Origin: Lytechinus pictus
Lineage: Eukaryota
Reading direction: 5' to 3'
Assembly: GCF_037042905.1 (NCBI RefSeq)
Contig: NC_087249.1
Coordinates: 24,676,001-24,740,000 of the forward strand
Length of the DNA: 64,000 nt
Part shown: positions 42,215-43,572 of the stretch, one piece after another
Position numbering within the stretch: the first letter of the stretch is position 1
Layout: the number at the start of each line of letters is the position of its first letter
The notes under the pieces: model-generated
Told to the model about the DNA's origin: nothing
Databases searched by the model: none
The model's input: the letters and a program-made list of their open reading frames with translations, nothing else
Translations under genes and position numbers: made by a program

Positions 42215-42273
42215 ACAAGTCTGTCAAGATAAGAGGGCAAAATGTGTTTTCTTCTGTCATTTCACAGGAAACC

Positions 42274-43572
42274 ATGGCACAAACCAATGTTCCAATTGAG
42301 ACGGAGGAACTGATTCTATTGGCCAGCTCAGGGGAGGAGATGGAGGAACAGGAAGGCCCCCATCAGGAGGAGGAAGCCCCCCATCAGGAGGAGGAAGCCC
42401 CCCACCAAGCCTCCCAGGCGGATAGTTCGTACACTGCCTCCCAAAAAAGAACCCGGAGGAGGCGCGAGAGAAGGCAGAGAAAGGCGGTGAAAATGAGTGC
42501 TATGGCCACCCGTACAATAGAGGGTAGAGGCCTAGGCAACATTACTGTGCCCCCCCAAAATAGGGCTGTAGGAAGAGGCAGGGGTAGGGGCCTAGGTAAC
42601 ATTGTTGTGCCCCCCCAAAATAGGGCCGTAGGAAGAGGCAGGGGTAGGGGCCTAGGTAACATTGTTGTGCCCCCCCAAAATAGGGCCGTAGGACTAGGCA
42701 GGGGTAAGGGCCTGGAAAAGTATCTGACTGCTGGTACAAAAGCCAACACTGTGCCCCTTACCCCTTGCCTAGCATATGATACTCACTTTCACCCTGACCG
42801 CATCCAGTCAAAAAGAGAGGAGTTAGGGGAGCCCGGGAAGCAGCCTGAGCAACCCGTTGACTTGGTGGGAGGGGTATTAAATTACTGTGACCCAGAGAAT
42901 TACACATCTCCCGACTTCGTCAACGAGTTGGTCAGGCTGCAGGAGGGAAGAAACACTTGGAAAATTGCCATGGGTATACACCCAAAGCAGGCAAGCACGT
43001 TCACCGAAAGGCATTGGCAGGCCCTTCTTCGACACCTCGACAACCCACGGGTTATTGGATTAAGTGAGGTCGGTTTCGAATTCACCATGTCCCCAGAAGA
43101 GTGGCCCAATCAGGAGCGCCTTTTCAACGCCCTCCTTGATGTGGGCACTCGGGGTAGGGTGCTTATTCTCCATCTACGAGGTGTCGAGGACGGGACCAGT
43201 GTTCATGTCATTAGCCGTCGCTTGATAAGAAAAAAATGCCCCAAAGGCCAGAGAATTCACCTACACTCATTTAATGGAACTGTGGCTCAGATGAGAGCCT
43301 GGACTACCGAGTTCCCGAACTGTTTTTTGGGACTATCTGGACTTACAAGGTGGTTTTCTGACCACCAGAGGACTATGGTGAGGGAGATTCCCGAAGGCAG
43401 GCTATTGCTCGAAACGGATGCCCCATACCTTCCTCCTCGCCCAGGAATGCGGTTCAACGAACCAAAATTCTTGGGCGATGTCGGAAGGTTGGTGGCTGGC
43501 CTTCGGGATATCCCTCTGGCGCGGCTAATGGCAGTAACCACTGCCAATGCCCAGAGGCTGTACTGCAGTTAA
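42274..43572 (+). CDS. TatD-family (amidohydrolase TIM-barrel) nuclease with acidic / Arg-rich / RG-repeat N-terminus, 432 aa, encoded inside the retrotransposon
   Basis: Motifs YDTHFH, GIHP, LSEVG, ILHLR, HLHSF and LLETDAPY in canonical TatD order; acceptor TTTTCTTCTGTCATTTCACAG (AG at 42266-42267) and Kozak ACCATGG at 42274; lies between pol and the 3' LTR. Confidence 0.9.
   Translation: MAQTNVPIETEELILLASSGEEMEEQEGPHQEEEAPHQEEEAPHQASQADSSYTASQKRTRRRRERRQRKAVKMSAMATRTIEGRGLGNITVPPQNRAVGRGRGRGLGNIVVPPQNRAVGRGRGRGLGNIVVPPQNRAVGLGRGKGLEKYLTAGTKANTVPLTPCLAYDTHFHPDRIQSKREELGEPGKQPEQPVDLVGGVLNYCDPENYTSPDFVNELVRLQEGRNTWKIAMGIHPKQASTFTERHWQALLRHLDNPRVIGLSEVGFEFTMSPEEWPNQERLFNALLDVGTRGRVLILHLRGVEDGTSVHVISRRLIRKKCPKGQRIHLHSFNGTVAQMRAWTTEFPNCFLGLSGLTRWFSDHQRTMVREIPEGRLLLETDAPYLPPRPGMRFNEPKFLGDVGRLVAGLRDIPLARLMAVTTANAQRLYCS

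Follow-up and report, generated by a model that had tools for sequence, protein, structure and literature searches.

In retroviruses and errantiviruses, the third open reading frame (ORF3) is env, which is expressed from a spliced subgenomic message (PMC13524379; the splicing rule is quoted in PMC5408684). The text available from a survey of Gypsy elements (PMC13524379) reports none with env in echinoderms. LTR elements seldom carry non-env accessory enzymes. The known nuclease case is that of the Juno and Vesta elements of bdelloid rotifers, whose ORF3 is described as a DnaQ-like 3'-5' exonuclease of the DEDDy type and is without clear selection (PMC5408684).

The animal enzyme most relevant to the present locus is TATDN2, a member of the TatD family. 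According to PMC10711561, the human protein degrades the RNA of R-loops and hairpins, shows little DNase activity, acts minimally on plain RNA:DNA duplexes, and requires its disordered N-terminus for binding. The class is reported to be hard to purify in humans (PMC10085689). In medaka, tatdn2 protects primordial germ cells against damage from R-loops, and its loss leads to R-loops and germ-cell death (PMC12709183).

Here we describe a TatD gene carried by an LTR retrotransposon of the sea urchin Lytechinus pictus. The window analyzed is a stretch of 64,000 nucleotides (assembly GCF_037042905.1, contig NC_087249.1, positions 24,676,001 to 24,740,000 of the forward strand), and all positions without a locus name refer to it. 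In the literature searched, no report of TatD in an LTR element was found; Repbase, Dfam, subscription journals, and supplements lay outside this search and may hold an entry. The term TatD does not occur in the available text of PMC5408684, PMC6238403, or PMC13524379, and PMC6962438 mentions TATDN2 in a figure legend only.

Structure of the element

Positions 32573 to 44834 constitute a complete, young Ty3/Gypsy element with a TatD gene as its third ORF (Table 1). The element has direct LTRs with TG...CA termini, a target-site duplication, a primer-binding site, a polypurine tract, and gag followed by protease, reverse transcriptase (RT), RNase H, and integrase domains, as identified with Pfam. 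Three of the four matches to the complement of the primer-binding site in the host genome were retrieved, and all three are tRNA-Ser genes.

Table 1. Coordinates of the features of the TatD-carrying element in the window.
Feature	Position	Strand	Remarks
Left target-site duplication	32569..32572	+	4 bp; identical bases at 44835-44838
5' LTR	32573..32840	+	268 bp, TG...CA; single mismatch to 3' LTR
Candidate LTR splice donor, GTAAGT	32802..32807	+	Not among the donors of the first-pass annotation; weak exonic side
Primer-binding site, tRNA-Ser type	32842..32855	+	Complementary to 3' end of host tRNA-Ser(TGA) genes
Candidate donor 1, GTGAGT (first-pass annotation)	32873..32878	+	Also in 2/2 close relatives (90-95% identity)
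Candidate donor 2, GTGAGT (first-pass annotation)	33459..33464	+	Also in 2/2 close relatives
28-nt tandem repeat in 2.6-kb leader	35197..35379	+	TRF
gag, frameshifted	35489..37502	+	N-terminal helix-hairpin-helix (Pfam HHH_3, 9e-9), C-terminal zinc knuckle (zf-CCHC, 4e-6)
pol	37448..42214	+	Protease, RT, RNase H, integrase, C-terminal PHD finger (42068-42202); Pfam
Polypyrimidine tract and AG, predicted splice acceptor	42246..42267	+	Retained in 84%-identical relative
ORF3	42274..43572	+	432 aa; acidic start, basic stretch, three 20-aa GRGRG repeats (42522-42713), TatD domain
Class II (HxH) TatD domain	42778..43563	+	H171, H173, E265, H300, H331, E380, D382
36-nt tandem repeat, 3' untranslated region	43605..43822	+	Six repeats, GGGAAAGCCACCC core
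Polypurine tract	44559..44566	+	Purine run ahead of 3' LTR, as in sister families
3' LTR	44567..44834	+	268 bp
Right target-site duplication	44835..44838	+	Matches 32569-32572

As the first-pass annotation had noted, ORF3 is open beside a damaged gag and pol. A frameshift near 36.1 kb interrupts gag, which forms a single 671-aa ORF in a copy of 95% identity, and pol contains an in-frame stop at 39728-39730. The intactness of ORF3 next to these lesions is no evidence on its own, since its share of the roughly 8.1 kb of coding DNA is 1.3 kb, and two random lesions would spare it in about 70% of cases (hand calculation). In several other copies, ORF3 is broken or lost.

Several further features of the element and its surroundings were observed. 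The helix-hairpin-helix at the start of gag (35489-35600) is recognizable in most families of the clade described below, and may, together with the integrase PHD finger, serve as a mark of that clade. Ahead of the protease, pol contains an in-frame tandem repeat of 267 nt in about three copies (37562-38325), of which a relative on C10 apparently has one copy fewer. The 36-nt repeats of the 3' untranslated region are possible protein-binding sites. The window family's LTR and leader recur in young deletion derivatives at C10:9.58 Mb and C15:1.38 Mb, which lack RT, integrase, and TatD; the C10 copies are in tandem, with gag still open. Elsewhere in the window, between 50500 and 54260, 15-nt repeats form long arrays in inverted orientation about 3 kb apart, in the shape of a foldback-type DNA element.

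The ORF3 protein

ORF3 extends from the ATG at 42274 to the stop at 43570-43572 with zero internal stops. Its sole Pfam match above the cut-off is TatD_DNase, which covers residues 169-430 (E 6e-35). The first two histidines of the site lie in a DTHFH motif, and the residues listed in Table 1 include the complete ligand set of the class II (HxH) TatD enzymes, i.e. HxH plus Glu, His, His, and Asp, as this class is defined in PMC10085689. The earlier description of a TatD with an intact catalytic site, located where env would lie, is borne out by the reading frame, the Pfam match, and the ligand residues. All six metal ligands are likewise intact in each of the nine family representatives and in 114 of the 130 representatives covering the site. 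The AlphaFold model (pLDDT 96) is predicted to adopt the TatD barrel fold: its best matches in the PDB are TatD structures, with TM scores of 0.73-0.76 at ranks 1-5, and the 15 listed rows within ranks 1-17 (E<1e-10) are all TatD-family chains by title or sequence match.

The remainder of the protein differs from an envelope. No signal-like or transmembrane segment was detected in the ORF3 of the window (maximum 19-residue hydropathy 1.12), nor in any of the seven families checked by the same screen (7/7; maxima 1.02-1.52). A fusion of RT or integrase to TatD was not found with Pfam in 46 long relatives. These two results point to an intracellular accessory protein and not an envelope. With its basic, RG-rich, low-complexity N-terminus, the protein would very likely act inside the cell. 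The RG repeats are present in four of the seven ORF3s checked and absent from the other three. A RefSeq model of the window ORF3 (P0001) removes the RG-repeat region (42425-42771) as an intron with a weak donor; we consider this intron unsupported and likely a prediction artefact.

Most relatives carry an additional zinc-finger-helical domain before TatD, which is present in 92 of the 93 representatives of at least 450 aa and in 7 of the 11 ORF3-type frames of the genome. The ORF3 of the window family is without it. One example (L025:7178-7630, minus strand) comprises about 150 aa, with a C2H2 zinc finger and a helical part. The predicted fold of this domain is confident (pLDDT 94). Searches of PDB and viral structures gave no match (E of 1.5 and 0.87 and Z of 3.5 at best), which is no proof of a new fold, and a search of the Atlas returned only a weak, unnamed C2H2 cluster. 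The domain was absent from the host and bacterial proteins searched.

Distribution of the element clade

The L. pictus genome contains 92 TatD-like matches, from which 30 high-scoring loci were chosen and retrieved with 20 kb around each. In 24 of these, TatD lies directly behind the integrase and PHD finger, and in one behind gag-protease; two are fragments of element 3' ends and three stand alone. The order gag, pol-PHD, TatD recurs in nine families, the window's included. In many of the nine, the LTRs are 99-100% identical and gag, pol, and ORF3 are all open.

The clade is also distinct by RT identity from the other Gypsy elements of the genome. Among the 150 of 1097 RT/RNase H candidates that were scored, 29 match the window at 63% identity or above (63-100%) and the remainder mostly at 56% or below, with five partial matches at 67-75% belonging to neither group. 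A TatD domain follows downstream in 22 of the 29 (one of them assigned from listed coordinates alone), two have the N-terminal part of ORF3 only, and five have neither. No TatD was seen within 10 kb of the 116 low-identity matches (at most 56%), as judged by eye from listed coordinates. TatD is a standing third gene of a Ty3/Gypsy clade, not a single-copy passenger.

Three of the five TatD-less matches belong to one family. This family is nested in the clade in the integrase tree, which suggests loss of TatD, and its copy at C3:56.79 has open gag and pol frames; the gene is therefore dispensable. In the TatD position, the C3:56.79 copy of this family (L089-L092, L096-L097) shows an antisense LINE-like RT fragment by eye.

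Related elements and proteins occur in other data sets. Element-type features were found in three (L101, L102, L106) of the best 80 of 563 metagenome contigs. Contig L106 encodes PR-RT-RH-INT-PHD-TatD with an integrase 71% identical to the window's, and L102 encodes INT-PHD-TatD with an integrase of 64% identity. Among viral contigs, none of 70 pattern matches was confirmed. A profile search gave at least 150 clusters (50% identity level) at E<1e-79 among the matches listed. Twenty of 150 clusters were looked up and seven carry species names; the named relatives, which are proteins alone, come from Lytechinus variegatus, Pecten, Ostrea, Haliotis, Dreissena, and Lingula. One Dreissena cluster contains three 613-aa copies on different chromosomes, the pattern expected of a mobile gene. 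Public annotation calls several of the element TatDs host genes, under the names ‘TATDN2’ or ‘YabD-like’.

Selection and ancestry

Comparison of element copies, as proposed in the first-pass annotation, shows that TatD evolves under purifying selection and not neutrally, with dN/dS ratios of 0.07-0.18. The ratio is 0.14 between the window and C3:8.09 (266 codons, p = 1e-15) and 0.11 between the window and C3:25.60 (231 codons, p<1e-4). Values of 0.07 and 0.18 were obtained in two other families (both p<1e-4), and the pol control gave 0.11. Some pairs were set aside: five near-identical pairs with too few changes (four non-significant, one with p = 0.049), six pairs from different families whose synonymous sites are saturated or nearly so, and C14:18.62 against C1:26.77, whose ratio of 0.49 was probably raised by a stretch with a frameshift in the decayed copy.

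The TatD tree (LG+G4) separates the element proteins from those of the hosts. The 32 element-type rows form one clade (100/99), which joins two deeper rows at 91/67. Host TATDN2-like genes, drawn from arthropods, echinoderms, a brachiopod, and a snail, are united in another clade with equal support (100/99), and bacterial TatDs are the third group. Four rows are omitted: a mis-cut one, a host row that is partial, and two element rows with frameshifts. In L. pictus, the host TATDN2-like gene is a separate, intron-bearing locus at C3:58.23 Mb, and the element TatDs do not group with host TATDN2 genes. This tree of element, TATDN2-like host, and bacterial proteins speaks against the recent capture of a host gene that the first-pass annotation had raised as a contrary outcome. 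Quick trees of integrase and TatD agree where resolved: the window, C11:35, C5:50, and C14:18 are grouped in both, as is C2:68 with the C13/C14:4.88 family.

Two motifs link the elements with animal TATDN2. An [FY]CxP segment common to elements and host TATDN2 is missing in all 18 bacterial rows, and HxH[CS]F, likewise common to both, occurs in 1 of the 18. By sequence score, bacterial TatDs come next after the element type. Because both tree and alignment comprise three groups, with TATDN1 and TATDN3 not among them, the TATDN2 origin rests on the motifs. Separate clades combined with shared TATDN2-type motifs indicate an old capture, and the shared motifs make an animal TATDN2-type gene its probable source. 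It is close to certain that the third ORF of these elements is conserved, that its two-metal site is intact, and that it is maintained by selection and forms a clade apart from host TATDN2.

Element-derived host genes

Two stand-alone cases are likely domesticated host genes with altered active sites that derive from the element clade. The first comprises near-identical two-exon genes at C15:31.243-31.255 Mb and C18:26.153 Mb (L021-L024), which are annotated as ‘TATDN2’ and have a counterpart in L. variegatus. There is no pol match in 20 kb around them, and for C15 an upstream exon is shown 8 kb away. In the TatD tree, they are placed within the element clade, next to the C11:35 family (99/98). 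A Gln takes the place of one His among their metal ligands. The C15 TatD domain is 97.4% identical between L. pictus and L. variegatus, compared with 85-92% for three element families. This pair of stand-alone genes, likewise set aside in the dN/dS analysis, gave a non-significant ratio of 0.43 over the TatD domain and one of 0.60 over the whole ORF. The second case, at C4:20.311-20.316 Mb (L069-L070), encodes about 1,100 aa with several ligands changed and shows 97.8% identity in the between-species comparison. A decayed tandem copy adjoins this gene, and its L. variegatus counterpart is labelled ‘mucin-17-like’.

Expression of ORF3

The first-pass annotation proposed that ORF3 is expressed from a spliced subgenomic mRNA, with an acceptor AG at 42266-42267, 6 nt ahead of an ACCATGG start. 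This acceptor was confirmed, and comparable sites recur across the clade. A site behind the pol stop with YAG, at least 14 pyrimidines in 17, and an in-frame first ATG within 10 nt is present in six of nine families, against a mean of 0.055 and a maximum of 2 in dinucleotide shuffles. In the remaining three families, the tracts count 15, 15, and 13 pyrimidines, and the ATG is more distant or out of frame; in the TatD-less family, the tract behind pol reaches 12. Similar acceptor-ATG sites are found in L102 and L106. On this comparative evidence, the predicted post-pol acceptor is real.

Two RefSeq predictions from the clade, taken as models only, are consistent with its use. Model P0127, from a sister element, starts in the 5' LTR and exits at a GTGAGT 159 nt before the LTR end. 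Its first eight codons come from the LTR, and the reading frame continues at the predicted acceptor, which lies 7.6 kb further on, such that gag-pol is skipped; this element belongs to the family whose post-acceptor ATG is out of frame. Model P0130 starts at the post-acceptor ATG, passing over an in-frame ATG 35 codons upstream. When about 6% of each of three raw-read runs was mapped to 10 kb of the C11:35.05 sister family, which has a higher copy number, 26 reads and no joints were obtained, a depth too shallow to be informative. The proposal of a spliced message is thus supported indirectly, by the conserved acceptor and model P0127, and a junction read is lacking among the 26 reads of the sister family.

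The identity of the donor is less clear. The GTGAGT motifs proposed earlier at 32873 and 33459 are present, but both score below the threshold of 5 bits, and the leader contains nine GTRAGT sites in total, five of them inside the 28-nt tandem repeat. A donor-like site lies within the 5' LTR in five of seven sister families, its equivalent in the window being that at 32802. The six bases of this site are constant in all five aligned LTR sequences of the window family (both window LTRs and three other copies, one of them 78% identical), and the preceding bases vary. GTRAGT occurs in the LTR of five of eight families, compared with a shuffle mean of 0.65 and three of eight on the reverse strand. 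In six of eight, GTRAG lies within 170 nt of the LTR end, a count reached by 3 of 2000 shuffles, with five of eight on the reverse strand. As such motifs are also frequent on the reverse strand, this test is weak. The LTR donor at 32802 is as likely as the two earlier candidates. Judging from the acceptors and the RefSeq model, there is a good likelihood that a donor within the 5' LTR or immediately behind it would be joined to the post-pol acceptor, with removal of gag-pol.

Function of the nuclease

The reading favored here is that the spliced message yields a free intracellular nuclease that would, in germ-line cells, degrade the RNA strand of R-loops or comparable RNA structures at the loci of the element itself; taken as a whole, we hold it with slightly less than even confidence. 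The enzyme could, about as tentatively, resolve R-loops or hybrids of element transcripts, sustaining transcription and limiting the DNA damage that kills germ cells of the carrier. R-loop or hybrid clearance is favored because of the TATDN2-like build of the protein, the activity of human TATDN2, and the germ-cell role of medaka tatdn2. The minimal action of human TATDN2 on plain RNA:DNA duplexes counts against this reading. If the enzyme resembles human TATDN2, DNA proofreading or AP-endonuclease activity would be less likely than RNA-directed roles. We would rank the roles with R-loop clearance first, counter-defence second, and DNA trimming within the particle third.

Two alternatives concern whether ORF3 is a functional, spliced gene at all. 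That it is a recent, passively captured host TatD in neutral decay might be suggested by the broken ORF3 of several inserted copies, but gag and pol decay in inserted copies as well, nine families carry TatD, and the host gene is distant in the tree; this idea, to which we give next to no credence, is ruled out by the dN/dS values and the TatD tree. Production of ORF3 without splicing, through pol readthrough or frameshifting or from an internal promoter, would agree with the lack of junction reads among the 26 from the sister family, and in family C5:50.26 a single stop separates ORF3 from pol, whose frame it shares. However, the RefSeq model of this in-frame family is itself spliced, the frame and the distance from pol vary by family (the first in-frame ATG lies 23-426 nt behind the stop), and the position of the acceptor is conserved although its sequence is not. 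We regard unspliced production as highly improbable.

Other alternatives accept the spliced nuclease and assign it a different target. It may destroy nucleic acids by which the host is alerted or guided; examples would be element RNA in hairpin or double-stranded form, precursors of piRNA, and stray cDNA. Some viruses evade immunity by means of exonucleases. In keeping with such a counter-defence, ORF3 is a separate, non-particle ORF with rapid turnover of its N-terminal part, TatD has diverged far more quickly than pol (identities of 46-51% against 74-83%), and one family has lost it. In addition, the host has seemingly domesticated altered-ligand copies twice, as conflict would predict, and human TATDN2 cuts hairpin RNA (PMC10711561). 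The overall dN/dS is nevertheless low, and we consider this role rather unlikely; it is compatible with R-loop clearance. A helper of replication inside the particle, the role to which the proofreading idea of the first-pass annotation belongs, appears more unlikely again. In that case, the RG-rich tail would bring the enzyme into the Gag particle, where it could trim cDNA 3' ends, remove leftover RNA, or start the repair of abasic sites. TATDN1, TATDN3, and three E. coli paralogues are reported to have 3'-exonuclease and/or AP-endonuclease activity (PMC10085689), and an auxiliary role in replication has been proposed for the rotifer exonuclease (PMC5408684). The RG repeats are found in 4/7 ORF3s but missing in 3/7, there is no fusion to Gag or Pol, the element encodes its own RNase H, and the motifs indicate TATDN2, the human form of which shows little DNase activity (PMC10711561).

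R-loop clearance and counter-defence meet in a wider scenario, which we consider possible but doubtful. A Gypsy clade of marine invertebrates would have captured a TATDN2-type R-loop nuclease before the protostome/deuterostome split and kept it since as a spliced accessory, either protecting the germ-line host cell or blinding silencing. Sea urchins would have twice domesticated altered copies, possibly as inhibitors.

Comparison with known systems

The present case combines strong purifying selection on a different nuclease with many families and young copies with identical LTRs in a laboratory sea urchin. A conserved nuclease in young copies makes the self-management of R-loops or silencing RNA by a retrotransposon testable. 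In addition, the elements supply many natural TATDN2-type enzymes. Many genes annotated as ‘TATDN2-like’ in sea urchins, and probably in molluscs, are transposon genes, which inflates gene-family counts.

ORF3 resembles the env of errantiviruses and retroviruses in its position between pol and the 3' LTR, its acceptor behind pol, and its predicted 5' donor. It differs from env in having no signal peptide, membrane anchor, or fusion protein, and the element does not belong with the env-bearing errantiviruses. With animal TATDN2 (PMC10085689, PMC10711561), it shares HxH, both catalytic Glu residues, the Asp, a long low-complexity N-terminus, [FY]CxP, and HxH[CS]F. Unlike animal TATDN2, the element TatD is intronless and mobile and forms its own clade, and most relatives add the zinc-finger-helical domain.

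Juno and Vesta share with the element an enzymatic exonuclease as ORF3 in the env position, with intact catalytic residues, predicted nuclease activity, and no membrane segment (PMC5408684). Their ORF3 is a DEDDy domain, whereas that of the sea urchin is a TatD barrel without one. The available text of PMC5408684 describes no significant departure from neutrality for the rotifer genes, in contrast to the dN/dS values of the TatD genes, and confines them to one class, whereas members of the TatD protein family are found in sea urchins, molluscs, and a brachiopod. The rotifer ORF3s are the closest precedent: an element of this kind is known, and TatD in such a role is absent from the literature searched.
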